From positions 1,888,001 to 1,952,000 of the forward strand of contig OY776510.1 of the NCBI GenBank assembly GCA_963675665.1: a stretch of DNA of 64,000 bases. The letters are read 5' to 3'. The notes under the pieces are model-generated. The model worked only from the letters and a program-made list of their open reading frames with translations, made no database searches and was not told the DNA's origin. A program made the translations under genes and the position numbers. The stretch's first letter is position 1. Each line of letters starts with the position of its first letter. Below, piece by piece: positions 15,927 to 54,791 of the stretch. The stretch is from Spirochaetia bacterium (GTDB lineage: Bacteria > Spirochaetota > Spirochaetia > UBA9216).

Positions 15927-15943
15927 AATGATAAAACTATTTT

Positions 15944-16825: not shown

Positions 16826-16876
16826 TTTTTCCTCCTATAGAATTTTAAAAGTAATAATTAGAAATCATGGAGAGTC

Positions 16877-26554: not shown

Positions 26555-26574
26555 TATAAAAGATACGGCCCGGC

Positions 26575-28900: not shown

Positions 28901-30976
28901 ATGAAATTACGTATGGGGGTAGACACGGGAGGAACTTTTACCGACTGTGTCGTTATTGACGAAAAGGGAGAGATTCACAGCTTCAAGGAGTTGTCCACAC
29001 CAAAGGACCCATCAATAGGCCTCTATAACGTAATTAAAAAGGCTGCAGGCTACTTCAAAAAAGATTTTAACGATTTCCTGGCCGGGCTTGATTTCTTTGC
29101 TCATGGAACAACGGTAGCTACCAATACCCTGCTTACGGGTACGGGAGCCGTAACCGGGCTGATTCTTACAAAAGGTTTTCGCGATTCTATTGAGATGCGG
29201 CGCGCCCATAAAAACAATATCTGGGACTTGTACCTCCCTGTTCCGACTCCGCTTGTTCCGAGATTTTTAAGAATCGGTATCGATGAACGGATTGATTATA
29301 AGGGTGATGTCGTTAAAAAGATGTCGGAAGAAGATGTTCGCAGGGCCTGCCGGATTTTCAGGCGGAACAATGTTGAAGCGGTTGCCGTCTGCACACTTTT
29401 TTCATTCTTAAATGATGAACATGAAAAACGTATCCGTGAGATTGTATGTGAAGAGCTGCCCAATGTTTTTATCTCGATATCTTCAGAAGTTCTTCCCCAG
29501 ATTCGTGAGTATGAACGTTCCTCGACAACTGTTGCAAATGCATATGTCGGACCCAAACTGACAATATACCTGGAAACCCTTGAAGCGCGTCTTAAAAATG
29601 ACGGCCTGAGCAGGGCTTTTTACGTTACGGCGTCGAACGGCGGAGTAATGACTGCCGACACGGCAATCAGGCACGCTTCGGCCACCCTTCTTTCAGGACC
29701 GGCAGCCGGGGCCGTTGGGGCAATGTATTTTGCCGACCTGCTTGACCGGCGAAATCTTATTCTTATGGACATGGGCGGAACATCTTTCGATGTAACCCTG
29801 ATTCACGATGCCGGTGTTACGCTGAGTACCGAAGGCGAAATAGCAGGTTACCGGGTAGCCAAACCCATGATCGATATACATACCATAGGCGCCGGGGGCG
29901 GTTCGATTGCTTGGATGGACTCCGGCGGAATGCTGAAAGTCGGACCTGCATCGGCGGGCTCCGATCCCGGACCCGTCTGTTACGGAATCGGCGGAAAAGA
30001 ACCTGCAGTAACCGACGCCAATCTTCTGCTTGGCTATCTTAACAAGGATTATTTTCTGGGCGGAGAGATGAAAGTCGATAACGAAGCAGCAGCAGAAGCC
30101 GTAAGGACAAGGATTGCCGAACCCCTGGGGATCAGCGTTCCTGAAGCCGCGCATGGAATTTTCAGAATAATTAATCAGAATATGGCGGACGCTGCAAAGG
30201 TTGTATCGGTGCAGAAAGGTCATGACCCGCGTGAATTCGCTCTTGTAAGCGCAGGAGGCGCCTGTTCAATTCATGCGTGCAAGATTGCCGAAGAGCTCGG
30301 AGCCACATCGGTTATTGTTCCGAAGGCGGCGAGCGTTTTCTGTGCTCTGGGTATGCTTGAGTCCGATATAAAACTCGACAGCGTAAAAACCTATAACGCA
30401 ACCATTCCGGGTATTGATCTGGAAGATTTCAACAGGGTCATAGTCGATGTTGAAAAGAAAGCTCTTGCCGAATTGCTGCAGGAAGGGGTTGAAGCCGGGC
30501 GCGCATCGCTGCTTCGGCACCTGGATATGAGGTATGTCGGCCAGCATCACGAGGTTACGGTGGATATTCCTGCAGGCTGTATGATTGAAGAAAAGCATCT
30601 CGACGAGATTGCCGATTCTTTTCACAGCGCGCATGAAAAACTGTATACGTATTCGACCCCCGAGAGCCAGCTTGAGATTATGGGACTACGCGTGACTGCT
30701 GTAGGAGCCGTCGACAAGGCAGAAGCTGCTCAAATCAGGCAGGAATCAATCGATATAGAAAAAGCTTTCAAGAACAGGCGAAAAGCCTGGTTTGCCGATG
30801 ATTCCGGGACGGGAAGTTTTATTGACGTTGATGTGTACGATCGCAATATGCTTGTTGCCGGACACCGGATTGCAGGCCCGGCTATTGTTGAAGAGCGAAT
30901 TACAACGGTGATAGTTCATCCGGGCTGGATTCTGAGCATTGATGAATATGGAAATATTATAATGGAGGCCGAGTGA
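28901..30976 (+). CDS. Hydantoinase/oxoprolinase family subunit A (ATP-dependent cyclic amide hydrolase)
   Basis: GVDTGGTFTD, HGTTVATN, REYER, SGPAAG, DMGGTSFD, GAGGGS, GPAIVEE. Confidence 0.93.
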   Translation: MKLRMGVDTGGTFTDCVVIDEKGEIHSFKELSTPKDPSIGLYNVIKKAAGYFKKDFNDFLAGLDFFAHGTTVATNTLLTGTGAVTGLILTKGFRDSIEMRRAHKNNIWDLYLPVPTPLVPRFLRIGIDERIDYKGDVVKKMSEEDVRRACRIFRRNNVEAVAVCTLFSFLNDEHEKRIREIVCEELPNVFISISSEVLPQIREYERSSTTVANAYVGPKLTIYLETLEARLKNDGLSRAFYVTASNGGVMTADTAIRHASATLLSGPAAGAVGAMYFADLLDRRNLILMDMGGTSFDVTLIHDAGVTLSTEGEIAGYRVAKPMIDIHTIGAGGGSIAWMDSGGMLKVGPASAGSDPGPVCYGIGGKEPAVTDANLLLGYLNKDYFLGGEMKVDNEAAAEAVRTRIAEPLGISVPEAAHGIFRIINQNMADAAKVVSVQKGHDPREFALVSAGGACSIHACKIAEELGATSVIVPKAASVFCALGMLESDIKLDSVKTYNATIPGIDLEDFNRVIVDVEKKALAELLQEGVEAGRASLLRHLDMRYVGQHHEVTVDIPAGCMIEEKHLDEIADSFHSAHEKLYTYSTPESQLEIMGLRVTAVGAVDKAEAAQIRQESIDIEKAFKNRRKAWFADDSGTGSFIDVDVYDRNMLVAGHRIAGPAIVEERITTVIVHPGWILSIDEYGNIIMEAE

Positions 30977-32730
30977 TGAGTGCAGTCAGAAAGAAGGAAT
31001 TTGAAGGCGCTGTAGATCCCATAACACTGTCGGTAATATACAACCGTCTGCTCACAATTAATGAAGAGATGGGGATAACTATGATAAACACCTCGATTTC
31101 TCCCATTTTTGCCGAGGCGCATGATTTTTCCTGTGCAATCTGCGACTGGAACAACCGTATAGTTGCCCAGATAGACGGTGTGCCGTCGCATACCGCTTCA
31201 GCTATGGAGTCGGTTAAAGCGGTAAGCGCCTACTTCGGGGATGATATAAACGACGGCGATGTGTTTGTCTTAAATGATCCTTATTCCGGCGGAACGCATC
31301 TGCCTGATCTGACGATTATGAAGCCGATTTTTTATAAAGGCAGCCTGCAGTTCATTGCCATAAACCGTGCCCATCACGGCGATGTCGGCGGAATTGATCC
31401 GGGATCATACTGCCCGTCGGCTACCGAGCTCTTTCATGAAGGAATAAGGATCCCGCCTCTGAGAATATATCGCGACAACAAACCTGTCATGGATGTTGTT
31501 GATATGATTCGGCTGAACACCAGAATGCCTGATGAACTGTGGGTTGATACGAAAGCAATGGTTGCTTCCTGCCGGGTCGCTGAAAAGCGGATTTACGAGC
31601 TTCTTGACAAGTACGGGGTGGAAATGACCCGCAGTACAATAGAAGAGATTCATCAGTATGCGGAACGCAGAATGAGAAAAGAGATTGAGGCTTTAAAAGA
31701 CGGAACCTATGTGGGCGAAACTTTTCTTGATAATGACGGCCATACCGATGATCCCATCCGCATAAAAGTGTCGATTACGATTAAGGGAGATGAAGCCTTT
31801 GTGGATTTTGACGGTACCGATGACCAGGTAACCGGTTTTATTAATTCACCGATAGCAAATACTGAAACCTGTGTTTATGTTGCCTTTCTGACAACCGTTA
31901 CAACACCGGATATCCCCCATAACGAGGGAGTTTACAGGCCTATTCATATTACCGCCCGCGAAGGTTCGATTGTGAATGCCCAGTTTCCCGCCGCTGTTGT
32001 GTCGTGTACGCTCGATACTGCATGCGCAATTCTTGAAGCGTGCTGGAAAGCCTTGTCCCAGGTGCTTCCCGATCGTGTGCCAGCCGGGTGGAATCGCTGG
32101 AACGGCCCCGCAATAGCCGGAGTAGACCCGAGAAGCGAAAACTTCTACGTTATGTTCGCATTCAACGGTTTCGGCGGCGCCGGGGGGATGTCCGGAATGG
32201 ACGGCAGGCATTATATCGGCGATGGAATTGATCTGGGCGGCCTGATTGCTCCGAATATCGAAACCAACGAGTCTGATTATCCCCATATAACCGAGTTCAA
32301 TGAATTCACGACGGACAGCTGCGGAGCCGGAAAATTCCGCGGCGGATGCGGCGCCGGTTACAGGATTAAAATGTACGATGATGAACCGAACCTGGTAATG
32401 TTCGGCGACGGCCGTGATAATCCTCCGTATGGTTTGTTCGGAGGCGGTGAAGGCAGCCCCAATATGGCTTGGCTTAATCAGGGGCTTGAAAACGAACGGC
32501 TGTTGAAATCTAAAGAGTCGGTAAACCTGCGTTCAGGCGAGACCTACACATCGTATCCTTCCGGAGGCGGAGGATGGGGTAACCCTGCCGAGCGTGATCC
32601 GGAACTTGTACGTCTTGATGCGATGAATGAAATAATCAGCCTCGAGGCTGCCGGGAAGATCTATAAGGTTGCTCTTGAAGGTGAAGACTTGCATATAAAC
32701 GAAGAAAAGACTGCTGAATTACGGAGGTGA
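30976..32730 (+). CDS. Hydantoinase B/oxoprolinase family subunit
   Basis: DFSCA, NDPYSGGTHLPD, HHGDVGG..PGS, EGIRIPP, GAGKFRGG, GGGGWG. Confidence 0.93.
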   Translation: MSAVRKKEFEGAVDPITLSVIYNRLLTINEEMGITMINTSISPIFAEAHDFSCAICDWNNRIVAQIDGVPSHTASAMESVKAVSAYFGDDINDGDVFVLNDPYSGGTHLPDLTIMKPIFYKGSLQFIAINRAHHGDVGGIDPGSYCPSATELFHEGIRIPPLRIYRDNKPVMDVVDMIRLNTRMPDELWVDTKAMVASCRVAEKRIYELLDKYGVEMTRSTIEEIHQYAERRMRKEIEALKDGTYVGETFLDNDGHTDDPIRIKVSITIKGDEAFVDFDGTDDQVTGFINSPIANTETCVYVAFLTTVTTPDIPHNEGVYRPIHITAREGSIVNAQFPAAVVSCTLDTACAILEACWKALSQVLPDRVPAGWNRWNGPAIAGVDPRSENFYVMFAFNGFGGAGGMSGMDGRHYIGDGIDLGGLIAPNIETNESDYPHITEFNEFTTDSCGAGKFRGGCGAGYRIKMYDDEPNLVMFGDGRDNPPYGLFGGGEGSPNMAWLNQGLENERLLKSKESVNLRSGETYTSYPSGGGGWGNPAERDPELVRLDAMNEIISLEAAGKIYKVALEGEDLHINEEKTAELRR

Positions 32731-33866
32731 GTGTGGAAATAAAAAAAATAGCTGTTCTGGGATCCGGAAACGGAGGGTTTATGAGCGCAGCCGATTTTGC
32801 CCTGCAGGGATATGAAGTTGCCATCTACTCCAGGAATGACGAGAAGATCGCAGGGGTTAGGGCTAACGGGGGGATAGATCTTCTGGACATTGACTCAAAC
32901 CCGACGGGGCAGAAGGCTGAAATTGCGTGTGCTACCTCCGATATTAAAGAAGCGCTGAAAGGCGCCCAGGTAGTTCTGAACCCGGTTCCAATTTTTGCAA
33001 GCAGTTTTTATGCTGAAAAATGCGCGCCGTATGTTGAAGACGGGCAAATCTTTGTCAGTCTGGGCAAGGGCGGAGCTTCACTTATATGGGCAAAGGTGTT
33101 CAAGGAAAAGGGTGTTTCCAAAAAGGTCTATCTTGCCGATACAAACACTCTGCCGTACGGTGCGTCCAGGATAGATGATCATTCCGTCAGGCTGGAAAAC
33201 AGAACACAGAATCTTCTTGCGGCCTGTTTTCCCGGAAAGGACATCAAATATGTTGGAGAGATACTTGAACAACTCTATACTCCGGACAACTACGATATCC
33301 GCTACGGGCAGAATGCCATAGATTCAATTCTTGTCGATTACAATGCTATAACGCATACGCCCCCGATGATCTGCAATGCGGCACGGATAGAAACCGGAGA
33401 TCCGGATTTTCATCTTTTCGGTAAAGATGAAAACACCCCGGCAGTTGTAAGGCTGATCGAAAGAATTGATCGCGAGCGTATGGCTATAGGAAAAGCACTC
33501 GGGCTGGAGCAGCACACACTTGAAGAAGAAATCCTGATGGTTAAGTGGAACCCGAATCAGGAAGATTATATTCTTCCGCTGTATGATGCCATCCACACCC
33601 CGTTTCTGGAAGTATGCGAAGGTCCGTTCAAACTTGAAACCAGGCACCTGACCGAGGATATACCTTACGGCCTTGTAACATATTCATCTCTCGGAAAGAT
33701 GCTTGGAGTGCCTACGCCGATATCGGATGCTGTAACTGCTATTGCCGGGGTTCTGCTCGATCGCGATTTTACAGCAAAAGGGAGGACTGTTGAACAGCTG
33801 GGAATTAATCCTTCATGGACAACTGAACAGCTGAAGCAATATCTTGAAGACGGAACAATAGAATAA
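32727..33866 (+). CDS. NAD(P)-dependent opine (octopine/nopaline) dehydrogenase family protein
   Basis: LGSGNGG Rossmann fold, TLPY..R, N...H.P, D.ER, RHLTEDIPYGL, GVPTP, GRT. Confidence 0.85.
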   Translation: MSVEIKKIAVLGSGNGGFMSAADFALQGYEVAIYSRNDEKIAGVRANGGIDLLDIDSNPTGQKAEIACATSDIKEALKGAQVVLNPVPIFASSFYAEKCAPYVEDGQIFVSLGKGGASLIWAKVFKEKGVSKKVYLADTNTLPYGASRIDDHSVRLENRTQNLLAACFPGKDIKYVGEILEQLYTPDNYDIRYGQNAIDSILVDYNAITHTPPMICNAARIETGDPDFHLFGKDENTPAVVRLIERIDRERMAIGKALGLEQHTLEEEILMVKWNPNQEDYILPLYDAIHTPFLEVCEGPFKLETRHLTEDIPYGLVTYSSLGKMLGVPTPISDAVTAIAGVLLDRDFTAKGRTVEQLGINPSWTTEQLKQYLEDGTIE

Positions 33867-33915: not shown

Positions 33916-34920
33916 ATGTCACATTTGAAAGGAAGAGATTTAAAAGGTATTCTTGATGTTAACCGCGATGAAGTTGAATTTATTCTCGATGTAGCAAAAG
34001 AGCTTAAACGGGAACAGAAGATCGGCCGGCCTCATCGATTACTGGAGGGGAAAAGTCTCGGCGGAATTTTTGAAACACCCAGTACCCGTACGAGTATAAG
34101 TTTCGAAACGGCAATGACGCATCTCGGAGGGCATATGATCTGGCTTGACTCAAGCCGACTCTGGGTAGGCGATGCTGCCGAAGAAGACTGGCGCGATACG
34201 GTTAAAACCATCGACAGGTTCCTCGACGGAGTTGCATACCGCGTAGGCGCCGCCCGCGAGAGGCTGGACAACGCCGCCGAATATGCCGAGATTCCTTTTA
34301 TTAACGCTTCCTGCCCCGTAGAACATCCCTGCCAGGCTTTTGCAGATCTTTTAACTATGCGCGAAAAGAAAGGCGACACCAAAGGGGCAAAAGTTGCATT
34401 TATGTGGGGTTATCGCGATGCCAACCCGCCTGCGGGCCTTACCAATTCGCTTATGATGATGGCCGGCACAATGGGTTTCGACATCTCAGTTGCCTGTCCC
34501 CCAGGTTATGAGCCGCATCCCGATTATATGAAAGAAGCCATGGCACGATCTGAAAAATCAGGCGGAAGCGTAAAGGTTGTTCACGATTATGAATCTGCAG
34601 CAAAGGACGCCGATTTTATCAACGTCTATTCATGGGTTTCTCCGGAAGTCTGGGCAAAGAGCGTAGCAAACCATTTTCAGGCAGATCCGGCATTTCAGGC
34701 AGAGAAGCTGAAACTCAAGGATAAATGGTGTGTTACCCAGGATGTAGTGGATATGGCGAAGAAGGATGTTATGGTAATGCATCCCATGCCGATTGCGCGT
34801 AATGAAGAAGTAACGAACGAGGTTCTTGATTCCGAAAAATGCATAATCTACGATGTAGCCGAGAACAGGCTGCACACCGAGAAAGCAATACTTGCCCTGC
34901 TTCTCGGAGGATACCGATAG
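33916..34920 (+). CDS. Carbamoyltransferase, non-OTC substrate loop
   Basis: PSTRT, HPCQ, HPMP, AENRLH kept; OTC DxxxSMG replaced by YSWVS. Confidence 0.85.
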   Translation: MSHLKGRDLKGILDVNRDEVEFILDVAKELKREQKIGRPHRLLEGKSLGGIFETPSTRTSISFETAMTHLGGHMIWLDSSRLWVGDAAEEDWRDTVKTIDRFLDGVAYRVGAARERLDNAAEYAEIPFINASCPVEHPCQAFADLLTMREKKGDTKGAKVAFMWGYRDANPPAGLTNSLMMMAGTMGFDISVACPPGYEPHPDYMKEAMARSEKSGGSVKVVHDYESAAKDADFINVYSWVSPEVWAKSVANHFQADPAFQAEKLKLKDKWCVTQDVVDMAKKDVMVMHPMPIARNEEVTNEVLDSEKCIIYDVAENRLHTEKAILALLLGGYR

Positions 34921-34935: not shown

Positions 34936-36258
34936 ATGTCTGAAAAGATCAGGATTGTTCATTTCATCAATCAGTTTTTTGCGGGGATCGGCGGTGAAGA
35001 GGAAGCCCATGTCGGCGTATCCTTCGAAGACGGTCCCAAAGGCCCCGGCACGGGTATAGAAGCAAAACTTTCCGATTCAGCTGAAGTGGTACGCACTATC
35101 TGGTGCGGGGATAACTATATAAACGAGAACCAGGAAGAAGCGTCGGCCGAGATTGAAAAACTGATTACGGATGCCAAACCGGATGTTGTGCTGGCAGGAC
35201 CGGCGTTCAATGCAGGCCGGTACGGACTTGCATGCGGGCTTGTAGCAAAAATGTGCCGGGACAAATTGGGAATTCCGGCAATCACCGGAATGTTTCCGGA
35301 GAACCCGGCTGTGGAAATCTACAAAGAAAGTGTCTATATAATGCCTGTAGGCGGAACTGCTGCGGGAATGCGCAAGGCCATACCTATGCTGTCCGAAAAG
35401 GTCCTGAAGCTCGGCCGGAAAGGCAAGCTTGGAAATGCTCTTGAAGACGGGTATATTCAGTCGGGTTACCGGTATAATGAGCTGGTTGAAAAGCCTGCAG
35501 CCGTACGGGCGCTCAATATGCTGATGCAGAGGCTGTCCGGGGAAGACCCGATAACCGAAGTACCGAGACGGACGTTTGAACAGGTTGATCCTGCACCCCC
35601 TGTCGGCAATATGAAGGAGGCTGTTATAGCTATAGTTACCGGCGGCGGAATGGTCCCGGCGGGAAATCCCGATAAACTGAAACAAGCCTTTGCCGATGCC
35701 TTCGGTGTTTACTCGATAGAGGGTCTGGATGAACTTCCTGCCGGAGAGTTCAAGGGAATTCACGGCGGGTTTGATTCAAGCTATGTAGATGAAGATCCGG
35801 ACAGGGTCGTTCCGCTCGACGCGCTTCGGGAGATGGAAAAAGAGGGAACATTTAAAAAGCTGGTTAATGAATATTTTGCGCTTTGCGGAATAGGGACAAA
35901 TGTAGCGATGAGTAAAAAGCTTGGAGCAGAGGTGGCCGAGGAGCTTAAAAGGAGACAGGTAAGCGCGGCAATCTACACCTCTACATGAGGCACCTGTACC
36001 CGTTGCGTGTCAACGATGCAGAAAGAAGCTGAGCGGGCAGGGATACCGTCGGCTTTGATTACAGCTATCCCGTCAGTTGCAAGTTCGGTCGGCGTAAGCC
36101 GAATCATAACAGGCGGAGGCATTCCCTATCCAGCAGGAGATCCGACTCTGCCGGCAGACAGAGAGATGGAGTTTCGTAAACGACTGGTAGAAAAGGCTCT
36201 TGAAGCCGTCAGTACAGCCGTCGACGGGCCGACAATTTTCAATGTCAGCATAGCCTAG
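34936..36258 (+). CDS. grdB: Glycine/sarcosine/betaine reductase family selenoprotein B (Sec at TGA 35986-35988)
   Basis: INQFFAGIGGEE.A, GPAFNAGRYG, MFPENPA, HGGFD, TST-U-GTCTRC; ORFs 34936-35988 and 36007-36258 share one frame; selA/selB in window. Confidence 0.93.
35995..36020 (+). promoter_or_regulatory. Candidate SECIS hairpin of grdB
   Basis: TGTA-CC-CGTTG-CGTGT-CAACG-A-TGCA stem-loop starting 6 nt after the UGA. Confidence 0.6.
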
Positions 36259-36274
36259 GCAATCGGAGGTGGGA

Positions 36275-37585
36275 ATGAAACTTGAACGAGGTTATTTCGA
36301 AATAAAGGATCTGGTCTTCGGCGGCAGCCTGTCGCTGAAAGACGGGGTCCTGACAATTGAGAAAAAGGAACTTGAAAATTATCTTCTTTCCGAGGATGAA
36401 AACGGAAATATAGAGCACATAGAGCTGGAAATCGTCAGGCCCGGCGAGAACACGCGAATTGTGCATATTCTTGATACGGTTATGGCGGGCGTCAAGGTTG
36501 AGGGCGAGAGCGAATTTATGCCCGGACAGATGTGTGATCCTGTAATAGCCGGAAACGGCAAAACCCATTTAATAACAAACCTGGCGATCATGGAATGTGC
36601 CGAACTTCCCTGGGCGGGAAAATCAGCGCTGTTATATCCCCGTGATGCCATTGTCGATATGATGGGGCCGGCTGCCGGTTATTCTCCGTTTTCGGAAACT
36701 TTTAACCTGATCCTGAAAATGGATATGGTTAAGGATTCGTCTGACATCGAATACGACAATTCCGTCAGAAACGCGGGCATAAGATGCGCCAGAAAGATAG
36801 CGGAACTGCTTCGCGATCTTGTACCTGATCGAAGTGAAGTCTTTGATTTTGATCAGGAGGTTGACCCTGAATTGCCCAAAATTGCATATGTAACCCAATG
36901 CCAGAACCAGGGCGTATATTCGAACACATTTTTGTACGGACATGAAGTCTGGAACATTGTTCCGACATATCTGAATCCTACTGAAATGATGGACGGGTGT
37001 GTTGTCAGCGGAAATTATGTATGGCCCTGTTTCAAGGTGCCGTCCTGGATACAGGCAAATATGCCCGCAGTAATGGAGCTTGCACGCGGCCACGGCGTAA
37101 AGTGGAATTTCACCGGTGTGGTTTTTGACCGCGGACATAATGATTCTCATTTTCTTAAACAGAGAGCCGCAAGTCTTGCTTCAAACCTGGTGCGCAGGCT
37201 GGGGGCCGACGGTGTTCTTATCTCGTGGGAAGGCGGCGGAAACGCAGCTACGGATGCAATGCTTACCCTTCAGACTTGCGAAAAGTGGGGGATAAAAGCC
37301 GTGCCCTATACTTTCGAGTTCGGCGGTCCGGACGGCCGCGAGGGGATTCTGCTTGTGGATGATGTTCCGGAGGCTGAATATGTTGTATCAACCGGTTCGA
37401 TAGAGAAGCCGACGACTATTCCCGCTGTTGATCGCGTTGCCGGCGGCGACTGCCTGCGGCTGAGGAAAGAAACAGGGGGAGAGCCTGAACCGGCTGATGT
37501 TGAGCGAACGCTTGATGTAATCACGGCGTTCTACTGCGGTGCAAACCAGAGCGGAATAGGGAGACTGGCGGGAGTTCCCTATTAA
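36275..37585 (+). CDS. Reductase component B proprotein-family subunit (GrdE/GrdG/GrdI homologue)
   Basis: MKLE..., IVRPGE..RI....D, G.G.TH, YG, PTY.NPTE.MDG..VSGN, ADG..IS.EGGGN...D; Tyr at the cleavage-Cys position. Confidence 0.85.
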   Translation: MKLERGYFEIKDLVFGGSLSLKDGVLTIEKKELENYLLSEDENGNIEHIELEIVRPGENTRIVHILDTVMAGVKVEGESEFMPGQMCDPVIAGNGKTHLITNLAIMECAELPWAGKSALLYPRDAIVDMMGPAAGYSPFSETFNLILKMDMVKDSSDIEYDNSVRNAGIRCARKIAELLRDLVPDRSEVFDFDQEVDPELPKIAYVTQCQNQGVYSNTFLYGHEVWNIVPTYLNPTEMMDGCVVSGNYVWPCFKVPSWIQANMPAVMELARGHGVKWNFTGVVFDRGHNDSHFLKQRAASLASNLVRRLGADGVLISWEGGGNAATDAMLTLQTCEKWGIKAVPYTFEFGGPDGREGILLVDDVPEAEYVVSTGSIEKPTTIPAVDRVAGGDCLRLRKETGGEPEPADVERTLDVITAFYCGANQSGIGRLAGVPY

Positions 37586-37858
37586 AGTTGAGCAATTGGT
37601 TATTGCTCAACTTTAATCTAAAGTAATTATGACAACAAACGGGTGTCATAATTACTTATATAGGTCTAAGGAAGAAAACTGAAACTGAAGTTTCAGTTTT
37701 CAGATTGGCGATTGGTTATCACCAAGTTTCAATTTTAAGTTTAATAACACCCTTCGGTTGTTATTAAACTTCATGAAGCAATGCCGGGAAAAATTAAAAG
37801 TTGAAACTTTTAATTTTAACTTAAACAAATGCTGAAAAAAGTCAAAAGCTTGACTTTT
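37581..37858. repeat. Array of seven AT-rich palindromes with A-B-C/A-B-C ~116-bp periodicity
   Basis: Inverted repeats at 37581-37617 (16 bp arms), 37621-37657 (14), 37674-37701 (13), 37705-37725 (8, one mismatch), 37737-37771 (13), 37790-37817 (13), 37837-37858 (9). Confidence 0.95.
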
Positions 37859-37933: not shown

Positions 37934-38392
37934 ATGCTTGAGGGCAAAAAGGTAATTATTCTCGGTGATCGCGACGGAATCCCGAGCGGCGCAATTGAAA
38001 ACTGCCTTTTGGGAAAAGAGCTGGAAATTATATTTTCCGTTACCGAGTGTTTTGTCTGAACTTCTGCCGGTGCAATGGATCTGGAGAACCAGAAGCGGGT
38101 GAAGGAGCTTGCTGAAAAACACGGGACTGATAATCTGTTTGTTCTGATAGGAGGAGCAGATCCCGAAGCAAGCGGTCTTGCTGTAGAGACAGTTATGGCC
38201 GGAGACCCGGCTTTTGCCGGTCCATTGACAGGAGTCCAGTTGGGACTTCCTGCATATCATATAGTAGAGCCTGAAATAAAGGCTGAAATTGATCCGACAG
38301 TTTATGAAGAAAACATCGGGATGATGGAAATGGTTCTTGATGTTGATGCTATAATTGAAGAAGTATCGACAGTCAGAAAGGATTGTTCATGA
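37934..38392 (+). CDS. grdA: Glycine/sarcosine/betaine reductase selenoprotein A (Sec at TGA 38057-38059)
   Basis: GGAGG RBS; [17 protein letters not shown]...[17 protein letters not shown]...GDPAFAGPL; the ORF track shows only the post-UGA half. Confidence 0.95.
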
Positions 38393-38703
38393 TCGAATTA
38401 GACAAGACAAACTATGACGAAACAGTAAAATCAGCAGAGAAACTGCTTGTCATTGATTTCTGGGGCACGACATGTGCCCCCTGCATGGCCCTGAAACCCT
38501 TTATCGAAAAGTACGAGAAGGAATTCGAGGGCAAAGCGGAATTCGCCGAAGTAAATATTCAGGGAAACCGACGGCTTGCGATACGCGAACAGGTTATGGG
38601 GCTTCCAACGATACTATTTTTTAAAAACGGAGAAAAAATCGACGAGCTTGTAGTTGATTTTTCCCCGCCTCAGCTTAAAAAAAAGATTGAGGAGCTTGTA
38701 TAA
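38389..38703 (+). CDS. trxA: Thioredoxin of the reductase system
   Basis: [23 protein letters not shown] (Grd-type Trx); ATGA overlap with the grdA stop. Confidence 0.9.
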
Positions 38704-41267
38704 TGGGCAGTTATTCCGGAATTACTGCATGTTCATATAATCTTCTCCATGTTCCTGAATTAAGTTTCCGCTACGGAAGCACACCTGAAGCGGAACGTGA
38801 AGCACATCCGGATTCCGATTTTATTCGGAATCTGGAAGCTTCTTTCCGTTCCTTCGATGAAGCGGCCGCATATATTCCAAACCAGGTTTTTATCGGCAAT
38901 ATTGATCCTCTGAACATGCCCGAACGGCCGTGGTCCGGCAGGGATTCCGCCGTTGCCAGGAATTCAGGACCGTACGGAGACATCCTGGATGAGGTTTCCG
39001 CGATTGGTTTGCTGAAATTCTCGGACATGTTTGACCTTGTTCTGCTTGAAAGCGGCTTTGCAGCTTCCGCAAAGAAAAACCTTGAGGGCCTCGGGGTTCT
39101 GAAAGGATCCGATCTGTCGAAATTTGATACGGAAGTTTCGATTGATCAGATAAATGAGGCGATAAATACAAAAGCGCTTCCCCTGTATTACAAGAGAAAA
39201 ATTATCGGCTGTGTTAAGGCAGCTCATCCGGATGATCTCAGCCTCAGGGCCCATGTAATTTTTGAAAACCTTGCGTCTAAAGCCGGAGCGGTATATTCCG
39301 TTCTGAAACTCATTGCGTTAAGCGGAACGGACCCGGCTTCTGTTGATTATATTATTGAGACCTCGGAAGAAGCCTGCGGAGATGCAAACCAGCGCGGCGG
39401 AGGAAACTTTGCAAAAGCGATAGGAGAGCTTTCCGGGCTTAAAAATGCAACAGGCAGCGATACCCGTTCATTCTGTGCGGGCCCTGTCCACGGGATTCTG
39501 CAGGCAGCCTCGCTTGTAAAGGCCGGGACTTTCAGAAAGGTAATTGTGGCGGCAGGCGGTACAACCGCAAAGCTTGCCATGAATTCCAGAAAGCATATTG
39601 AAAAAGGCTTTCCCGTGCTTGAAGACTGTATGGGTGCTTATGCGCTGCTGATTGAAGGCGGAGACTCGCTTTCGGCGGGCAAACGGGGCGGAATAATAAT
39701 CAGAAACGATCTGGCGGGAATCCACCGGATAGGATCAGGCTCCTCGCCTCAGAACGTGATTCAGAGCCTTGTTGCCGACCCTCTGGAAAAGGCCGGAAAG
39801 CGATTTGATGAAATCGGTTATTACGCACCGGAGCTGCATAACCCGGAGATTACCGAAGCCGGAGGGGCAGGCAATGTAACCCTTGCCAACCTGAAGATGG
39901 TGGCAGCCATGGCCGTAATGAAAAAGCAGATTGAACGTTCGGATATCAACGACTTTATAGATGCTCACGGATCGCAGGGATGGGCGCCTACCCAGGGCCA
40001 CATCCCGTCAGGAATTCCCGCCCTGGGGTGGATTATGAAATGGTTTGAATCCGGGCGCATTAATAACGCGATGATTATAGGCAAGGGCAGCCTTTTTCTC
40101 GGAAGAATGACGGGACTGTTCGACGGTGTTTCAATAATACTGGAAAGCGGCCGTGTCGGAGGACCGACTTCTGAAAAGACGCCTGCTCACGCAGTTGCGA
40201 AATCTGTTTCGACCCGAAAGGGCGCCGTAAAAGTCGGGTTGACAATTCCCGGATCTGAATCAGGCGCCGGCGAGCTGCTGCGCGCGGCAGCCGAAGCTGA
40301 AACGGTTATGCCCGGGCTTGACGTGGTAACTTTCGGAGATGAATCTTCGGAACCGGGGAAGGCGCATGGAATGATGGAGAAAGCGCTTGAACAGGGTGAT
40401 GTGGATTCCGTGGTAACATTTCACTATCCGTTTCCTGTAGGAACCGCAACCGTAGGGCACACAAAAGCGCCCGGCAGCGGACGTGATATTTTTATCGCGT
40501 CGACTACCGGAATATCGGACACAAACCGAGTTGTCGCCCTGATTAAAAACGCGGTTGCCGGAATTGCTGCTGCAAAGGCCTGGGGAATAGTCTCTCCTTC
40601 TGTCGGAGTGCTTAACCTCGACGGGGCCCGCGCGGCCCTGCAGGGATTAAAACGCCTGAAGAGCTCCGGTTACGGTATAGAATTGGCCGTGTCGGCCCGG
40701 GGCGATGACCTGCTGCGCGGAAACGACATTCTTGCCGGAACAGCCGATGTAATCGTCTGCGATACTCTCAGCGGTAATGCTTTCATGAAACTTTTAACGG
40801 CATATTCTTCCGGCGGAATGCTTGAAGTCAGCGGATCAGGCTACGGGCCGGGGCTCGGCGCTGAGCTGCCACTTGTGAATATCATTTCGCGGGCAGCCGG
40901 AAGCGCCGCAGTTGTAAACGCGATAATTTATTCGGCACGAATGGCTTTGTCGGGTTTACAAACTGTCTATTCCGAAGAGTATGCATCAGCTTTAAAAGCC
41001 GGTCTTTCCGGGATAATCGAAGAAAACAGGCAACCGGAAACCAACGCGGAATCCGGATCTGAGGAGCCTGAAGCAAAGACTGTGGAACATGAGATTGAAG
41101 GAATTGATGTGCTTCAGCTTGAAGATGCCGTTAAACGACTTAAAGCGGACGGGATCTACTGCGAAGCCGGAATGGGCTGTACCGGACCGGTGGTTATGAT
41201 CGCTGTTGAAGATGTTGAACCGGCAAAGAAAATACTGATAAAGCAAGGGTTTATCGAGGAGGCTTAG
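38703..41267 (+). CDS. Fused reductase protein C (GrdC-GrdD)
   Basis: N-half SEEACGD.NQRGGGNFAK, FCAGP, AKL.MN...H, PTQGHIPSG, GKGSLFLGRMT.LFDGVS (GrdC); C-half GSE.G, VT.HY.FP.G..TVG, RGND.L.G, GYGPG, EAGMGCTGP (GrdD). Confidence 0.9.
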   Translation: MGSYSGITACSYNLLHVPELSFRYGSTPEAEREAHPDSDFIRNLEASFRSFDEAAAYIPNQVFIGNIDPLNMPERPWSGRDSAVARNSGPYGDILDEVSAIGLLKFSDMFDLVLLESGFAASAKKNLEGLGVLKGSDLSKFDTEVSIDQINEAINTKALPLYYKRKIIGCVKAAHPDDLSLRAHVIFENLASKAGAVYSVLKLIALSGTDPASVDYIIETSEEACGDANQRGGGNFAKAIGELSGLKNATGSDTRSFCAGPVHGILQAASLVKAGTFRKVIVAAGGTTAKLAMNSRKHIEKGFPVLEDCMGAYALLIEGGDSLSAGKRGGIIIRNDLAGIHRIGSGSSPQNVIQSLVADPLEKAGKRFDEIGYYAPELHNPEITEAGGAGNVTLANLKMVAAMAVMKKQIERSDINDFIDAHGSQGWAPTQGHIPSGIPALGWIMKWFESGRINNAMIIGKGSLFLGRMTGLFDGVSIILESGRVGGPTSEKTPAHAVAKSVSTRKGAVKVGLTIPGSESGAGELLRAAAEAETVMPGLDVVTFGDESSEPGKAHGMMEKALEQGDVDSVVTFHYPFPVGTATVGHTKAPGSGRDIFIASTTGISDTNRVVALIKNAVAGIAAAKAWGIVSPSVGVLNLDGARAALQGLKRLKSSGYGIELAVSARGDDLLRGNDILAGTADVIVCDTLSGNAFMKLLTAYSSGGMLEVSGSGYGPGLGAELPLVNIISRAAGSAAVVNAIIYSARMALSGLQTVYSEEYASALKAGLSGIIEENRQPETNAESGSEEPEAKTVEHEIEGIDVLQLEDAVKRLKADGIYCEAGMGCTGPVVMIAVEDVEPAKKILIKQGFIEEA

Positions 41268-41672
41268 ATGGGGTTAAAAGTCGATCCTGAAAAATGCACC
41301 GAATGCGGAAGATGCACGGCAATATGTTCACTTGTCAAAACCGGAAGGATCCAGCCGCAGGCGGCGCGTATTCATATCGAGCGCCAGTGGCCTGAAATCC
41401 CGGTAATAGCTGTCTGCCGGTTTGAGAATTGTCCTGAACATCCCTGCATAGAGGCTTGTCCTTTTGATGCAATCGAAATAATAAACGGCAATGTACAGAT
41501 TATTGAAGATAAATGCCGGGGCTGTACAAAATGTGTAAAGGTCTGTCCGTTCGGCGCAATACAAATGGATAAGGATTCCAGGATAGCGCTCAAATGTGAT
41601 CTTTGCGGAGGAAGCCCTGCCTGCGTTCCGGAATGTGTGACTGAAGCGCTGACCTATTCGGAGGATGTGTAA
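41268..41672 (+). CDS. 4Fe-4S dicluster electron-transfer protein
   Basis: CTECGRC...C, C...C..HPC...CP, CRGCTKC...CP, KCDLC...P.C...C. Confidence 0.9.
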   Translation: MGLKVDPEKCTECGRCTAICSLVKTGRIQPQAARIHIERQWPEIPVIAVCRFENCPEHPCIEACPFDAIEIINGNVQIIEDKCRGCTKCVKVCPFGAIQMDKDSRIALKCDLCGGSPACVPECVTEALTYSEDV

Positions 41673-43495
41673 TGAGCGGAAGTATGTACGACAGAATGTT
41701 AAGAATAAACTGCTCCGCAGCTGAAGCAAAAATCTGGAATGTTCCGGATAATCTTAAACCCTATGTCGGCGGAATGGGTTACGGAACCAAGCTGCTGATT
41801 GACGAGGTTAACCCGGAGATCGACGGTTTGTCTCCTGAAAACAAGCTGATCCTGACCGTCGGTCCTCTTACGGGAACAACTGCCCCGCTTCATGCGCAGT
41901 CGTGTATTGTGACAAAATCTCCGCTGACCAATACAATTTTGAACTGTTATGCAGGCGGCTTTATCGGCGCCGAGATAAAATACTGCGGAATAGACGGTCT
42001 GATCCTTGAGGGGGCTTTCAGCGACTGGAAGATCCTCGTTGTTGATGATGATCATGTCGGTATTGAATCTGCCGAACCTGTAATGGGTTTTGGAACCGAA
42101 GAAACCGAGGAATGGGTAAAGCAGAAATACGGTAAAGACTACAGGACGATTTCGATCGGCCGGGCCGGAGAGAAACTTGTACGAATGGCGGCGGCTTTTT
42201 CCGAAACCCGGACCTACGGCCGGGGCGGAGCGGGAGCTGTGCTCGGTTCAAAGAGAGTCAAGGCAATTGCGTTCAGGGGAACAAGAGGTGCGGGTCTGTA
42301 TGATACTGATGAATTCAGCAGGCTGGTCGGAGAAAACATGAATCTTATTAAAGATTCATGCGGGCAGGAATTTAATCTTGTAGGAATGTTTTCCCGTTTC
42401 GGCACCGGCGCCGGCATGGGGCTTATCCAGTCAAGGGGTGCACTTGCAACCAGGAATTCACAGTACGGAAGTTTCGATCATTCGGAAGAGATCTCCGGGC
42501 AGACATACGAGAAAGATTTTTATACCCGGTGGGTTTCCTGTTACGGTTGCCCGGTACATTGCGGCAGGGTACACAAGTTTCACACCTTTAACGGCGGAGA
42601 AAGCTGGGCCCGGGGGCCTGAATATGAAACAATGTATTCGCTGGGATCACAGCTGTGCAACGGAAATCCGGATGTTCTTGCCGAAGCGAACCGTCTGACT
42701 GAAGTCTATGGAGTTGATTCGCTTACAATCGGGGTTACGCTTGCATTTGCATTTGAATGCGCTGAGAAGGGTTTGCTGAAAGACGACGAACTGAACCTTG
42801 AATTCGGCGATGCGGCTTCCATTCTGGGACTGATAAAGAAAATAGGCGAACGTGAAGGAATCGGCGATATCCTTGCCGAAGGTCCCGCGCTGGCTGCCAG
42901 ACAGATTGGCGGGGGATCGGAAAAATTCGCAATGCAGGTTAAAAACTCGGGATTTGCAGCGTGGATGCCCCGGCGGATGGTCGGTACCGGTCTGGCTTTC
43001 GCGACATCGAACCGCGGGGCATGTCATAAGCGCGCGCCGATAGGCGCAGAGATTACCGGTCAGGTTGATATGCTGAGTTTTGAAGACAAGGCAATAATTG
43101 TTAAAAAGAACCAGGATGTTGTAAATGCCACTTTTACACTGATAAGCTGTCGATTTCATGAGTTTATGACCCCGCATGAGGTTTATCCCGCTTTTATTCG
43201 GGCAGCTACCGGAATTGATATTGACCTCAAAGGGTTTTACAACCTTGGGGAACGGATATGGAACCTTGAAAAGATCTTCAACCTCCGGTCCGGATTAGGC
43301 CGGGAGGATGATATTCTTCCCGAACGCTGTTTCAGGGATCCTGTTCAGGGCGATAATTCCGAGGGATCTGTACTGGACTATGAAAAATGGCAGAACATGC
43401 TTACCGAATATTACAGTCTCCGCGGCTGGGACTACAACGGCGTGCCAACCGGAGAAAAACTGGAATCACTCGGAATAGGGGGCTACGGGATCTGA
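41672..43495 (+). CDS. Aldehyde:ferredoxin oxidoreductase family (tungstopterin)
   Basis: YVGG.G, KSPLT, GRGGAGAVLGSK, CYGCPVHC, GPEYET, RGACH, YY..RGWD..G.PT. Confidence 0.93.
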   Translation: MSGSMYDRMLRINCSAAEAKIWNVPDNLKPYVGGMGYGTKLLIDEVNPEIDGLSPENKLILTVGPLTGTTAPLHAQSCIVTKSPLTNTILNCYAGGFIGAEIKYCGIDGLILEGAFSDWKILVVDDDHVGIESAEPVMGFGTEETEEWVKQKYGKDYRTISIGRAGEKLVRMAAAFSETRTYGRGGAGAVLGSKRVKAIAFRGTRGAGLYDTDEFSRLVGENMNLIKDSCGQEFNLVGMFSRFGTGAGMGLIQSRGALATRNSQYGSFDHSEEISGQTYEKDFYTRWVSCYGCPVHCGRVHKFHTFNGGESWARGPEYETMYSLGSQLCNGNPDVLAEANRLTEVYGVDSLTIGVTLAFAFECAEKGLLKDDELNLEFGDAASILGLIKKIGEREGIGDILAEGPALAARQIGGGSEKFAMQVKNSGFAAWMPRRMVGTGLAFATSNRGACHKRAPIGAEITGQVDMLSFEDKAIIVKKNQDVVNATFTLISCRFHEFMTPHEVYPAFIRAATGIDIDLKGFYNLGERIWNLEKIFNLRSGLGREDDILPERCFRDPVQGDNSEGSVLDYEKWQNMLTEYYSLRGWDYNGVPTGEKLESLGIGGYGI

Positions 43496-43783
43496 GTGAA
43501 GGTTGTTGTTGAGTTTATCGGATATTTCCGGATTAAGGCGGGCTGCGAACTGGTTGAGTTTGAGCTGCCGGACGATGTTTCCGCAGCAGAACTGGTTGAT
43601 GCAATTGAGCAGAAATTTGAACGGCAGAAGCTGAAAATCAGTAAAGAAGGTATTCTTCAGGAGGGCGTTCTTATGTTTTACAGGAAAGAAAACGGCGGAC
43701 TTGAACGGATATTTAATCTGTCGTCCGGTCTGAAGGATGCAGGCGAAAGAATTGTGATAGCTAATCTGATGGGTGGAGGTTGA
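43496..43783 (+). CDS. MoaD/ThiS-like sulfur carrier
   Basis: Small beta-grasp-like protein ending in MGGG, directly after AOR. Confidence 0.7.
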   Translation: MKVVVEFIGYFRIKAGCELVEFELPDDVSAAELVDAIEQKFERQKLKISKEGILQEGVLMFYRKENGGLERIFNLSSGLKDAGERIVIANLMGGG

Positions 43784-43788
43784 GCTGA

Positions 43789-44637
43789 ATGGAATATTAT
43801 CGTCCGCATACTGTTGAAGAAGCGGTTAACCTGAAAGACGGGAACTCTTTATTTATAGCCGGAGGAACCGACCTCGGTGTAATGCTGGCCGACGCTGTAA
43901 AACAGCCGGGAGCATTGATTGATTTAAGTGCCATCGGCAGCCTCGACGGAATCAGGGAAAGAAAAGACGGGCTGGTTATAGGTCCCTGTACAAAAATTGC
44001 CGATATAGCTTCCTCGGATGTTCTCCCGGCAGCCCTTACCCGTGGCGCCGCAGCAATTGGCTCTCCACAGATCCGAAATATGGCCACAATAGGGGGAAAT
44101 ATCTGCAATGCATCGCCGTGCGGCGATACGCTGACCCCGTTAACGGTGTTTCATGCGGTATTTACGCTTCAGGGAAGGGAAGGCTCCAGGACAATCACTA
44201 CCGGTGATTTTTTCAGGGGACCAAAACAAACCGACCTCAGGGAGACGGAGATTCTGACCGAAATTTTTATTCCGGGAACAGCGCTTGCCGGTCTCAGCGG
44301 GTTCAGGATGACCGGGAAACGTAACGGGCAGGCGATATCACAGGTGAATATGGCACTCAGGCTGACGGTTGAAAACGGTACTGTAACCGGAGCGGTAATA
44401 GCCGCCGGGTCCGTAGCCCCGGTTCCAATCCGGCTTGAAAAATGCGAACAGCTTCTTACTGGGGTAAGAACAGCGGACCTTGTTTTCGGGGCCCCGTTTC
44501 TGAAAGAACTGGCGGCAGAGGCAGAGGCTGAAGTAATGCCGATATCTGATATACGCGCCGGGGAAGATTATCGCAGAAGCGTAAGCGGCTCCATACTTTC
44601 AGAGCTGGTTGCCGGGATAATTGCGGAGGGAGTGTGA
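43789..44637 (+). CDS. Xanthine dehydrogenase family FAD-binding subunit
   Basis: IAGGTDL, IGSPQIRN.ATIGGNICNASP.GD, PISD.RA...YR. Confidence 0.92.
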   Translation: MEYYRPHTVEEAVNLKDGNSLFIAGGTDLGVMLADAVKQPGALIDLSAIGSLDGIRERKDGLVIGPCTKIADIASSDVLPAALTRGAAAIGSPQIRNMATIGGNICNASPCGDTLTPLTVFHAVFTLQGREGSRTITTGDFFRGPKQTDLRETEILTEIFIPGTALAGLSGFRMTGKRNGQAISQVNMALRLTVENGTVTGAVIAAGSVAPVPIRLEKCEQLLTGVRTADLVFGAPFLKELAAEAEAEVMPISDIRAGEDYRRSVSGSILSELVAGIIAEGV

Positions 44638-45116
44638 GCGGTATGGAAATCAACTTTGTCATAAATGGGGAAAAACGGACAGAATATGCAGCAGCCGAGA
44701 CGAGGGCTCTTGATCTGCTTCGCGAAGATCTGAATCTTACCGGCACAAAAGAGGGCTGCGGCAAGGGAGAATGCGGGGCCTGTACAATTCTTCTTGACGG
44801 AAAACCCGTTTGTTCTTGTCTTCTTCCGGCCCCGAAGCTTGAGGGATGCAGTATTGTTACAATTGAAGGACTTAAAGGTGACGACGGAGGTCTTCATCCG
44901 ATACAGCAGGCTTTTCTTGATGCCGGCGCTATTCAGTGCGGATTCTGTACTCCCGGAATGATTTTAAGCGCCAAGGCTCTTCTGGATAATAACCCCGCGC
45001 CTGAGACAGCCGAGATAGAAACGGCATTAAGCGGAAATATCTGTCGTTGCACGGGCTACGGTAAAATTATCGAAGCGGTACAGCTTGCAGCTGAAAGGAT
45101 GCGGGTGGCCAAATGA
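44634..45116 (+). CDS. Xanthine dehydrogenase family 2Fe-2S subunit
   Basis: GTKEGCGKGECGACT, QCGFCTPG, GNICRCTGY. Confidence 0.95.
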   Translation: MSGMEINFVINGEKRTEYAAAETRALDLLREDLNLTGTKEGCGKGECGACTILLDGKPVCSCLLPAPKLEGCSIVTIEGLKGDDGGLHPIQQAFLDAGAIQCGFCTPGMILSAKALLDNNPAPETAEIETALSGNICRCTGYGKIIEAVQLAAERMRVAK

Positions 45117-51149: not shown

Positions 51150-51164
51150 GGTTGAAAATGAACA

Positions 51165-51192
51165 GAGGCCGTGGGCGGAAGTCCACGGCTTC
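51165..51192 (+). other. Stem-loop after the binding-protein gene
   Basis: GAGGCCGTGGGC-GGAA-GTCCACGGCTTC with G-U pairs and a GNRA loop. Confidence 0.6.
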
Positions 51193-51215
51193 AAATTTTA
51201 TTCAGGAAGGTGTAA

Positions 51216-54689: not shown

Positions 54690-54720
54690 AAGCGTTTTAA
54701 AGTAAAACATCATGTTGTGC

Positions 54721-54786
54721 TTGATAAACCGGAAACTCTAACGTATAATAAACCTAACGTTATACGTAAGAAAAAACAACGTAAGG
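54721..54786 (+). promoter_or_regulatory. Promoter and MerR-type operator repeats
   Basis: TTGATA-17-TATAAT (54721-54749); CTAACGT-TAT-ACGTAAG (54754-54770) plus extra CTAACGT/ACGTAAG half-sites. Confidence 0.55.
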
Positions 54787-54791
54787 TGTGT

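Follow-up and report, generated by a model that had tools for sequence, protein, structure and literature searches.

The Reductase Pair

In the stretch of DNA analysed here (64,000 nucleotides of a spirochaete contig, below called the window), the forward-strand gene at 36275-37585 encodes a GrdE-like protein in which tyrosine occupies the position of the cleavage cysteine of glycine reductase. It follows the gene of a GrdB-like selenoprotein; genes for protein A, thioredoxin and protein C stand next to the pair, and the genes for selenocysteine (Sec) insertion lie further downstream.

34936-36261 (+): GrdB-like selenoprotein, the partner subunit, 440 amino acids (aa) with read-through of UGA; TIGR01918
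36275-37585 (+): GrdE-family subunit of FinH/I type, SGN-Y248, predicted to be uncleaved; Pfam, NCBIfam, alignments, tree, AlphaFold
37581-37817: five intergenic hairpins between the GrdE-like gene and grdA, arms of 13-16 nt, 94-100% complementary
37934-38392 (+): selenoprotein A (GrdA), UGA at 38057-38059 read as U42; NF040748, 250.4 bits, cut-off 130
38383-38703 (+): thioredoxin; Pfam Thioredoxin
38703-41267 (+): fused GrdC-GrdD (protein C), 854 aa; NF040746, NF040747
59649-62742 (-): selB (59649-61391) and selA (61393-62742); Pfam SelB-wing_3/GTP_EFTU, SelA

GrdE-like protein: The frame 36275-37585 is free of stops, encodes 436 aa and contains MMDGCVVSGNYVWPCFK; residue 248 is Tyr. The list of open reading frames (ORFs) gives the gene as 36269-37585 with a GTG start; the ATG at 36275 fits better as the start, since the homologues begin with MKL. 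The product is a full-length member of PF09338 (Gly_reductase; component B subunits of glycine, sarcosine and betaine reductase; Pfam, 377.3 bits, residues 1-430). Its AlphaFold model has a pLDDT of 91.8 and a pTM of 0.92. A PDB chain matching the protein was found neither in the sequence search (E ≤ 1) nor with Foldseek (E ≤ 0.001), and VIA-align in its wide mode returned only generic alpha/beta (periplasmic-binding or Rossmann-like) matches over residues ca. 196-436 with Z ≤ 8.4, the usual background.

GrdB-like partner: An in-frame UGA at 35986-35988 corresponds to U351 in the motif TSTUGTCTRC. The protein passed only the generic selenoprotein-B model TIGR01918 (480.7 bits, cut-off 65.45) and stayed below the specific cut-offs of GrdF (486.9 against 800), GrdB (454.1 against 602.2) and GrdH (422.9 against 775).

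The Cleavage Position

The proproteins GrdE and GrdG carry SGN-C and are cleaved with formation of a pyruvoyl group; the classical case of a family member that is not processed is GrdI (PMC10838667). The GrdE-like protein resembles GrdE and GrdG in Pfam family, length, partners (GrdA, thioredoxin, GrdC/D) and the D-G-x-x-V-S-G-N stretch before the critical position; it differs from them in having Tyr where they have SGN-C with a second Cys four residues on, and is 34-35% identical to them. Y248 was aligned exactly in the Cys column of the Cys-type relatives (SGNC-VSACDK / SGNC-VAPCDK), so that the claim of the sequence-only reading, SGN-Y in place of SGN-C, holds. The second conserved Cys is also missing, and the residue at the cleavage position is neither Cys, Ser nor Thr.

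Clade members were collected by a protein search of 5.8 billion sequences, in which 329 relatives were scored among 7,999 candidates and the best 120 (Spirochaetota, Bacillota) were listed. SGNY[V/A]WP was found in 121 of 121 sequences, i.e., in the query and these 120 homologues of 49-90% identity. Two neighbouring cysteines vary: C242 ('DGC') is Ala in several members, e.g., P0015, P0027, P0075 and P0093, and most members have Ala, Val or Trp in place of C252 ('WPC'). Hence neither residue could stand in for the missing Cys as a conserved substitute. From these alignments, Tyr248 is a fixed character of the clade and not a chance or recent substitution, and the subunit is predicted to stay uncleaved and free of a pyruvoyl group, in agreement with what had been proposed from the single sequence.

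Sixteen residues were shared by at least 26 of 27 clade members but by at most 2 of 21 proteins outside the clade; among these residues are six aromatics (W113, Y121, Y215, W250, F253, F349). Such a set would suit a flat aromatic ligand; Tyr248, Trp250 and the other clade-invariant aromatics probably line a pocket for a flat ring.

The Superfamily and the Tree

A full HMMER scan of 1.84 billion representatives gave 892 relatives at E ≤ 0.001, of which 150, ranked by similarity to the query, were listed. The superfamily alignment comprised 149 rows. Of the 150 representatives it took in 136, the other 14 having lengths outside 380-560 aa; the remaining 13 rows were clade members, one of them the query. 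In this list, which leans towards the relatives of the query, the cleavage column of the 136 representatives held Tyr in 68, Phe in 17 and Cys in only 8. As far as the alignment goes, this shows absence of Cys to be the majority state of the superfamily, Cys-less proteins making up much of its diversity. The Cys-type branch of PF09338 is small, and its uncharacterised clades are many, the residue at their 'cleavage' position being Tyr, Phe, His, Trp, Leu, Ser or Arg. In P0122, the representative of a cluster from a Clostridia metagenome-assembled genome within the Fin clade, GGNL stands in place of SGNY. Ten superfamily representatives whose names were looked at all bore a variant of 'glycine reductase'.

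The tree was calculated with IQ-TREE from 57 rows (SH-aLRT support). The query was placed in a clade of 20 rows (99) together with a protein of locus L041 that is of the [Clostridium] scindens type, hence in the FinH/I clade, apart from the Cys-type and GrdI clades; this is the outcome of the phylogenetic comparison proposed beforehand. The GrdI proteins (5 rows, 100) nested with 7 Cys-type proteins in one clade (99), and the query lay in the other half of the tree. GrdI, standing inside the Cys-type branch, thus lost its Cys from within that branch, and in the branch of the query Tyr is the rule. In a large part of the family that lacks Cys, Tyr is the ancestral residue and does not stem from a loss in a GrdE; the framing of the protein as a GrdE homologue that had lost its Cys was accordingly abandoned.

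Comparison with Named Reductases

Glycine and sarcosine reductase: The GrdE-like gene is the only PF09338 gene of this 5.15-Mb genome and stands alongside GrdA, thioredoxin and GrdCD, with purine-type catabolic genes adjacent; in clostridia, purine catabolism feeds glycine to glycine reductase. A glycine or sarcosine reductase subunit that works without a pyruvoyl group, or with a carbonyl at another residue, would suit this setting, but is judged very unlikely: the cleavage Cys and the second Cys are missing and the flanking ones are not conserved; the GrdG model gave 254.5 bits against a cut-off of 780, and the partner is under the cut-offs of GrdB and GrdF; the clade is separate from all Cys-type proteins; and its Bacillota members are found in riboflavin-type operons. 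The other two NCBIfam models gave 125.7 bits against 675 (FarE, NF053623) and 29.9 bits against 700 (PrdA). Assignment of the protein as GrdG, FarE or PrdA was rejected, the scores being far below all three cut-offs. A route from creatinine or N-methylhydantoin (HyuAB plus sarcosine reductase) was also considered and dropped, in view of the missing Cys that sarcosine requires and of the link to the fin genes described below.

Betaine reductase: True GrdI was obtained by a search of 401 Spirochaetota genomes with the GrdH model; five genomes had a match over the cut-off. GrdE-family genes adjoin these five matches and the next two, just below the cut-off (L008-L014); the eighth (L015 locus) has none. 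The GrdI proteins of L008-L014 have ISGSF-MPCSSKW, with Phe at the position, and three insertions absent from the query, to which they are 28-31% identical. The GrdI/GrdH pair is like the window pair in joining a Cys-less GrdE-family subunit, unprocessed in GrdI (PMC10838667), to a Sec-containing GrdB-type partner. Unlike the query, which belongs to the large Tyr-bearing branch, GrdI has SGSF with insertions and derives from within the Cys-type branch, where it forms a clade of its own; the partner in the window fails the GrdH model, and no BCCT/OpuD transporter family was detected among the 52 window ORFs scanned with Pfam, as had been noted before. An identity as betaine reductase (GrdI with a GrdH partner) is hardly credible on these data; the protein did not cluster with GrdI. 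Both pairs likely share their chemistry, a good nitrogen leaving group being displaced directly with no Schiff base, as reportedly in Andreesen's work on betaine reductase (see also PMC10838667).

Fluoroacetate reductase: FarE/FarB of Cloacibacillus porcorum is a fluoroacetate reductase whose protein B has no processing cysteines and whose substrate is a non-amine X-CH2-COOH compound (PMC10838667). The window pair is likewise a glycine-reductase-type protein B without processing cysteines. FarB has no CxxC (same source), whereas the partner selenoprotein in the window keeps U-x-x-C-x-x-C.

Bacillota Loci and the fin Genes

A metagenome scan gave 129 relatives, of which the best 80 loci were kept; operon counts are from the 46 loci of at least 9 kb, many of which end at contig edges. 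The GrdB-like gene directly precedes the GrdE-like gene in 44 of 46. The Bacillota-type operon comprises a SorC-type regulator (12/46 loci), a DeoC/LacD class I aldolase (16/46), a Zn-dependent alcohol dehydrogenase (Zn-ADH; 27/46), an APC permease (30/46), a RibF-like protein with Flavokinase and FAD_syn domains (25/46), an aldehyde dehydrogenase (ALDH; 38/46), an XRE-cupin regulator (21/46) and the reductase pair. From this gene set a pathway for an N-ribityl compound can be derived: phosphorylation, oxidation, aldolase cleavage into dihydroxyacetone phosphate and X-CH2-CHO, oxidation of the latter to X-CH2-COOH, and finally reductive cleavage. A published proposal matches it.

The GrdE-like protein of L041 is letter-for-letter identical to a [Clostridium] scindens protein, and the query is ca. 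51% identical to it. The matching paper is that of Quiles-Perez et al. (bioRxiv, February 2026, 10.64898/2026.02.13.705874; J Bacteriol, July 2026, PMC13492142). According to it, C. scindens converts riboflavin to lumichrome anaerobically, and riboflavin induces a 'fin' neighbourhood: finB (RibF), finC (aldolase), finD (ADH), finG (ALDH) and finHI (homologues of glycine/betaine/sarcosine reductase). F. fissicatena has no finGHI, and an isolate was earlier reported to make hydroxyethylflavin, which keeps a two-carbon stub. In the journal version it is proposed that a triose is released by finBCD and that the remaining two-carbon unit on flavin N10 is removed by finHI to give lumichrome. Selenocysteine, the missing Cys, carboxymethylflavin and proteins A and C are not mentioned in those passages of the paper that were searched. 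The new specificity that the sequence-only reading had held likely is thus borne out as far as the protein is neither a glycine, a sarcosine nor a betaine reductase; the novelty itself belongs to the 2026 proposal.

For comparison with the fin neighbourhood the other genes of the cluster in the window are required:

28148-28870 (+): GntR/FCD-family regulator, head of the cluster; Pfam GntR and FCD
28901-32730 (+): HyuA-like (28901-30976) and HyuB-like (30973-32730) subunits of an ATP-dependent lactam/hydantoin ring-opening enzyme; Pfam Hydantoinase_A/B
32727-33866 (+): opine-dehydrogenase-like NAD(P) oxidoreductase; Pfam Octopine_DH and NAD_Gly3P_dh_N; syntenic
33916-34920 (+): carbamoyltransferase of the ornithine carbamoyltransferase (OTC) family; Pfam OTCace_N and OTCace
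41268-41672 (+): 4Fe-4S ferredoxin; Pfam Fer4
41672-43495 (+): aldehyde:ferredoxin oxidoreductase (AOR); Pfam AFOR_N and AFOR_C
43496-43783 (+): small MoaD/ThiS-like ORF
43789-47413 (+): xanthine-dehydrogenase-family (XDH) enzyme with FAD, 2Fe-2S and Mo subunits; Pfam
47432-48820 (+): SsnA-like amidohydrolase; Pfam, NCBIfam
48817-49995 (+): PreA/DHODH-like Fe-S flavoenzyme; Pfam, NCBIfam
50061-54689 (+): RfuABCD-type ABC importer: Bmp-family binding protein, double ATPase, two permeases; Pfam
54717-55235 (+): MerR regulator; Pfam, NCBIfam
55235-56257 (+): Zn-ADH; Pfam, NCBIfam
56257-57717 (+): FGGY kinase; Pfam, NCBIfam
57718-58506 (+): class I aldolase of DhnA/DeoC type; Pfam, NCBIfam
58442-59668 (+): MFS transporter, possibly an exporter or importer of a pathway compound; Pfam MFS_1; syntenic

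The window pair is like FinH/FinI of C. scindens in clade, in the SGNYVWP motif and in the adjacent Sec-type GrdB-like partner, and it has companions of the same kinds, namely kinase, Zn-ADH, class I aldolase and an enzyme for the oxidation of aldehydes. The Zn-ADH (55235-56248) and the aldolase (57733-58503) are 38.9% and 36.8% identical, respectively, to the fin-neighbourhood proteins of L041. A second adjacent pair of Zn-ADH and class I aldolase was found outside the window (G000:C1:4398019-4399833), 38.7% and 41.5% identical to the fin proteins and slightly closer to them than the window pair. The differences are as follows: kinase – FGGY in the window, RibF-like flavokinase in the fin neighbourhood; aldehyde oxidation – tungsten-type AOR with ferredoxin against ALDH; uptake – RfuABCD ABC importer against APC permease. 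No finG-type ALDH was found in the window; AOR and ferredoxin are present instead, a replacement shared with the Bacillota-type locus L032, where the trio of ferredoxin, AOR and ThiS-like protein lies upstream of the B/E pair. The ORF 43496-43783 had no Pfam match, and a 95-aa ORF at the same place after the AOR of L032 matched ThiS. Further, the cluster in the window itself encodes GrdA, thioredoxin and fused GrdCD, unlike the fin neighbourhood (no GrdA or protein C genes were found within 10 kb in the C. scindens-type loci L038, L041 and L043), and a large N-heterocycle module (XDH, SsnA, PreA, HyuAB, opine-dehydrogenase-like protein, carbamoyltransferase) is interleaved.

Importer: The best PDB match of the binding protein was 4IIL (E 2.2e-77); for PnrA/TmpC, which binds purine nucleosides, E was 1.4e-19. 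The crystal structure 4IIL shows TP0298/RfuA of Treponema pallidum with bound riboflavin, the contacts being S24, Y27, N82, Y157 and W189 (PMC3573665). All five contact residues are identical in the binding protein of the window (HMMER alignment to 4IIL).

Proposed Reaction

With moderate confidence, and from sequence comparisons, the GrdE-like protein is taken as the uncleaved non-selenium subunit of a carboxymethylflavin reductase of the FinH/I kind. Riboflavin would enter via the RfuABCD-type importer. Zn-ADH would oxidise the 4'-hydroxyl of the ribityl chain and FGGY kinase phosphorylate its 5'-hydroxyl, in either order; in Lachnospiraceae a RibF-like flavokinase would take the place of the FGGY kinase. 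The FGGY kinase would fit the variant in which ADH acts first, the 4'-keto side chain then being phosphorylated like a ketose at C1. Phosphorylation of a ketose at C1 is known from the fuculose and rhamnulose pathways. The class I aldolase would give dihydroxyacetone phosphate and 10-formylmethylflavin, and the latter would be oxidised by AOR to 10-carboxymethylflavin, a step for which most Bacillota would use ALDH. The pair of Sec-containing GrdB-like and GrdE-like subunits would then cleave the N10-CH2 bond: selenocysteine would attack the methylene carbon and the aromatic alloxazine (lumichrome) would leave, much as trimethylamine leaves in betaine reductase, no Schiff base being needed. 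The carboxymethyl group would pass to GrdA and be reduced with electrons from thioredoxin; fused GrdCD would release acetyl phosphate, which can yield ATP.

This scheme would make the missing Cys intelligible. N10 is a ring nitrogen with three carbon substituents, hence no imine could be formed and a pyruvoyl group would serve no purpose. Alloxazine is stabilised as a leaving group, which would make direct displacement by selenocysteine possible, as assumed for betaine and fluoroacetate (PMC10838667). 10-Carboxymethylflavin would be an X-CH2-COOH compound like all substrates of the enzyme family. The earlier expectation of a substrate acting without a Schiff base is retained in so far as the proposed N10-linked unit cannot form an imine; its ureido or guanidino candidates are replaced by what is probably an N-carboxymethyl heteroaromatic compound.

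Several points weigh against the assignment. The fin assignment rests on transcriptomics and comparison of gene content rather than on assays of an enzyme of the clade; carboxymethylflavin as the intermediate and a mechanism of SN2 type are proposals made here. At ca. 51% identity to the C. scindens-type protein, the substrate could differ. A RibF-like gene is absent from the window, and tblastn of the whole genome with the fin RibF gave nothing at E ≤ 1e-8. Zn-ADH, FGGY kinase and class I aldolase are a generic sugar/polyol module, and a paralogous ADH-aldolase pair is present elsewhere in the genome. No flavin mononucleotide (FMN) riboswitch was found in the window at Rfam gathering thresholds, and the Rfu importer could simply supply cofactor. 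Finally, HyuAB, the opine-dehydrogenase-like protein and the carbamoyltransferase upstream, with XDH, SsnA and PreA downstream, could point to a purine- or pyrimidine-derived substrate.

If the carboxymethylflavin reaction is correct, N-carboxymethyl heteroaromatic compounds would be the fifth substrate class of glycine-reductase-type selenoenzymes, after glycine, sarcosine, betaine and fluoroacetate, and the lack of the pyruvoyl-forming Cys in most of the family would be explained. The fin hypothesis would gain a testable mechanism: a carboxymethylflavin intermediate, selenocysteine as nucleophile and acetyl phosphate as energy-conserving product. The pathway would not be confined to gut Lachnospiraceae: free-living spirochaetes would have it too, and more completely, with an importer and proteins A and C of its own and possibly with enzymes that destroy lumichrome. 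New here are the FGGY kinase, the tungsten-type AOR, the RfuA-type importer, the dedicated protein A/C set and the possible lumichrome-degrading module in free-living spirochaetes. Riboflavin and the compounds into which it is broken down play a part in vitamin cross-feeding and in MR1/MAIT-cell signalling (PMC13492142), which gives the genes for their formation or removal a wider interest.

The Heterocycle Module

The module can be read in two ways: as degrading the released lumichrome, or as making another substrate of the reductase. The model scores of its enzymes were as follows: HyuAB – 738 (alpha) and 432 bits (beta) in the NCBIfam caprolactamase models, both below the cut-off of 1000; XDH – 557.9 bits in the pucD model, below 783.65; carbamoyltransferase – 267.9 bits in TIGR00658, slightly short of 280.85. 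Parts of the module also stand beside the pair in Bacillota-type loci: an SsnA-like protein (64%) and XDH in L029, XDH in L031, and HyuA (74%, at the end of the locus) in L033.

On the first reading, the co-oriented set of 31 kb (28148-59668) would be a complete oxygen-free catabolism of vitamin B2, the side chain being converted to dihydroxyacetone phosphate and acetyl phosphate and lumichrome degraded thereafter; this is put forward tentatively and is rather doubtful. HyuAB would spend ATP on opening the pyrimidine ring; the ureido group of the resulting intermediate would be removed by the OTC-like carbamoyltransferase, presumably by phosphorolysis, and carbamate kinase, which is encoded elsewhere in the genome, would recover ATP; the SsnA-like hydrolase would take off the amidine nitrogen, and the XDH-type enzyme would hydroxylate the quinoxaline. 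A search of the literature gave no description of anaerobic lumichrome degradation. For the aerobic breakdown of lumichrome by Nocardioides simplex, the following reactions are described: pyrimidine ring opening (LumH), release of urea (LumI), amidine hydrolysis (LumM) and hydroxylation of the quinoxaline by LumJ, a xanthine oxidase (PMC12746152). Aerobic catabolism (RcaE of Microbacterium, Lum of N. simplex) likewise leads from riboflavin to lumichrome, and the downstream chemistry of the Lum pathway and of the module is possibly parallel, by reaction types only and not by sequences; unlike the set in the window, the aerobic pathway needs oxygen (monooxygenase, P450, Rieske and catechol dioxygenases; same source).

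On the second reading, the spirochaete enzyme would be the same kind of Cys-less selenoprotein reductase acting on a different X-CH2-COOH substrate: either the carboxymethyl derivative of another N-ribityl or N-polyol heterocycle (lumazine, deazaflavin, pyrimidine) or an N-substituted glycine, e.g., formimino- or carbamoyl-glycine, supplied by the XDH/SsnA/PreA/HyuAB/carbamoyltransferase module. The heterocycle genes flank the pair on both sides in an association that is syntenic in spirochaetes, and their recurrence in L029, L031 and L033, the kinase of FGGY rather than flavokinase type and the moderate identity to the C. scindens-type protein all agree with such a substrate. It is nevertheless considered unlikely: the importer keeps the five riboflavin-contact residues, the logic of ADH, kinase, aldolase and aldehyde oxidase is common to the fin clusters, the module can equally be read as acting on released lumichrome (cf. 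PMC12746152), and ureido and formimino nitrogens are poor leaving groups unless activated. Carboxymethylflavin thus remains the favoured substrate.

Distribution in Spirochaetes

The gene order from GntR through XDH is kept in L003-L007, with GntR itself present in L003, L004 and L005 and partial in L007; HyuAB is syntenic in L003-L007. The order from XDH through MFS is kept in G401, G403 and G405; synteny of the entire arrangement extends to at least these three further spirochaete genomes. Among the sampled genomes of the phylum the clade is rare (3 of 401: G000, G284, G166), and 27 others gave only matches of at most 37% identity. The locus L106 of G284 (G284:C1:74000-93900) contains a complete Bacillota-type fin operon at positions 9295-18327, the reductase pair and ALDH of which are 65-67% identical to the C. 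scindens-type proteins; G284 belongs to another spirochaete genus and also has a canonical glycine reductase. The similarity suggests that the fin operon of G284 was acquired by horizontal transfer.

Proteins A and C and Selenocysteine

The fused GrdCD gave 619.6 bits in NF040746 (cut-off 450, residues 7-482) and 391 bits in NF040747 (cut-off 350, residues 503-851). A GrdC-GrdD fusion is also present in the Bacillota-type locus L029 (915 aa); two separate genes are found in L028 and L033. The complete set of protein A, thioredoxin and protein C stands beside the reductase pair in the window and likewise in L028, L029 and L033. In some Bacillota loci the pair is followed by thioredoxin reductase, thioredoxin, GrdA, GrdC, GrdD, SelA and SelB; in L029 and L033 the reductase genes have SelA-SelB behind them, and in L028 ORFs of the same two families.

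UGA is read as Sec on the grounds of in-frame homology across it and of the adjacent selA and selB. For Sec insertion sequence (SECIS) hairpins, 65 nt from each UGA were folded and were no different from shuffles (z 0.15 and -0.66); ARAGORN found no tRNA, and thus no tRNA-Sec, in the window. Of the five hairpins in the 350-bp gap between the GrdE-like gene and grdA, four are perfect and one is 94% complementary, with loops of 2-9 nt; inspection by eye suggested one or two more. The hairpins could act as terminators or attenuators, or could form a repeat element.

Other Features of the Window

The sole Rfam match in the window was a TD-2 small RNA at 2821-2919 (-), 55.9 bits against a gathering score of 48.7. 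At 13428-18378 (-), a second Bmp-family lipoprotein (529 aa, with a weak CsgG-like tail) adjoins another DeoC-type aldolase, a C_GCAxxG_C_C protein, an SDR protein and a DeoR regulator; this may be another module of uptake and catabolism. Just upstream of the cluster, 25559-27903 holds another ornithine-carbamoyltransferase-like gene (+), more typical than that of the cluster, together with a gene for a class III aminotransferase (-), which is next to the GntR gene also in L003 and L005.

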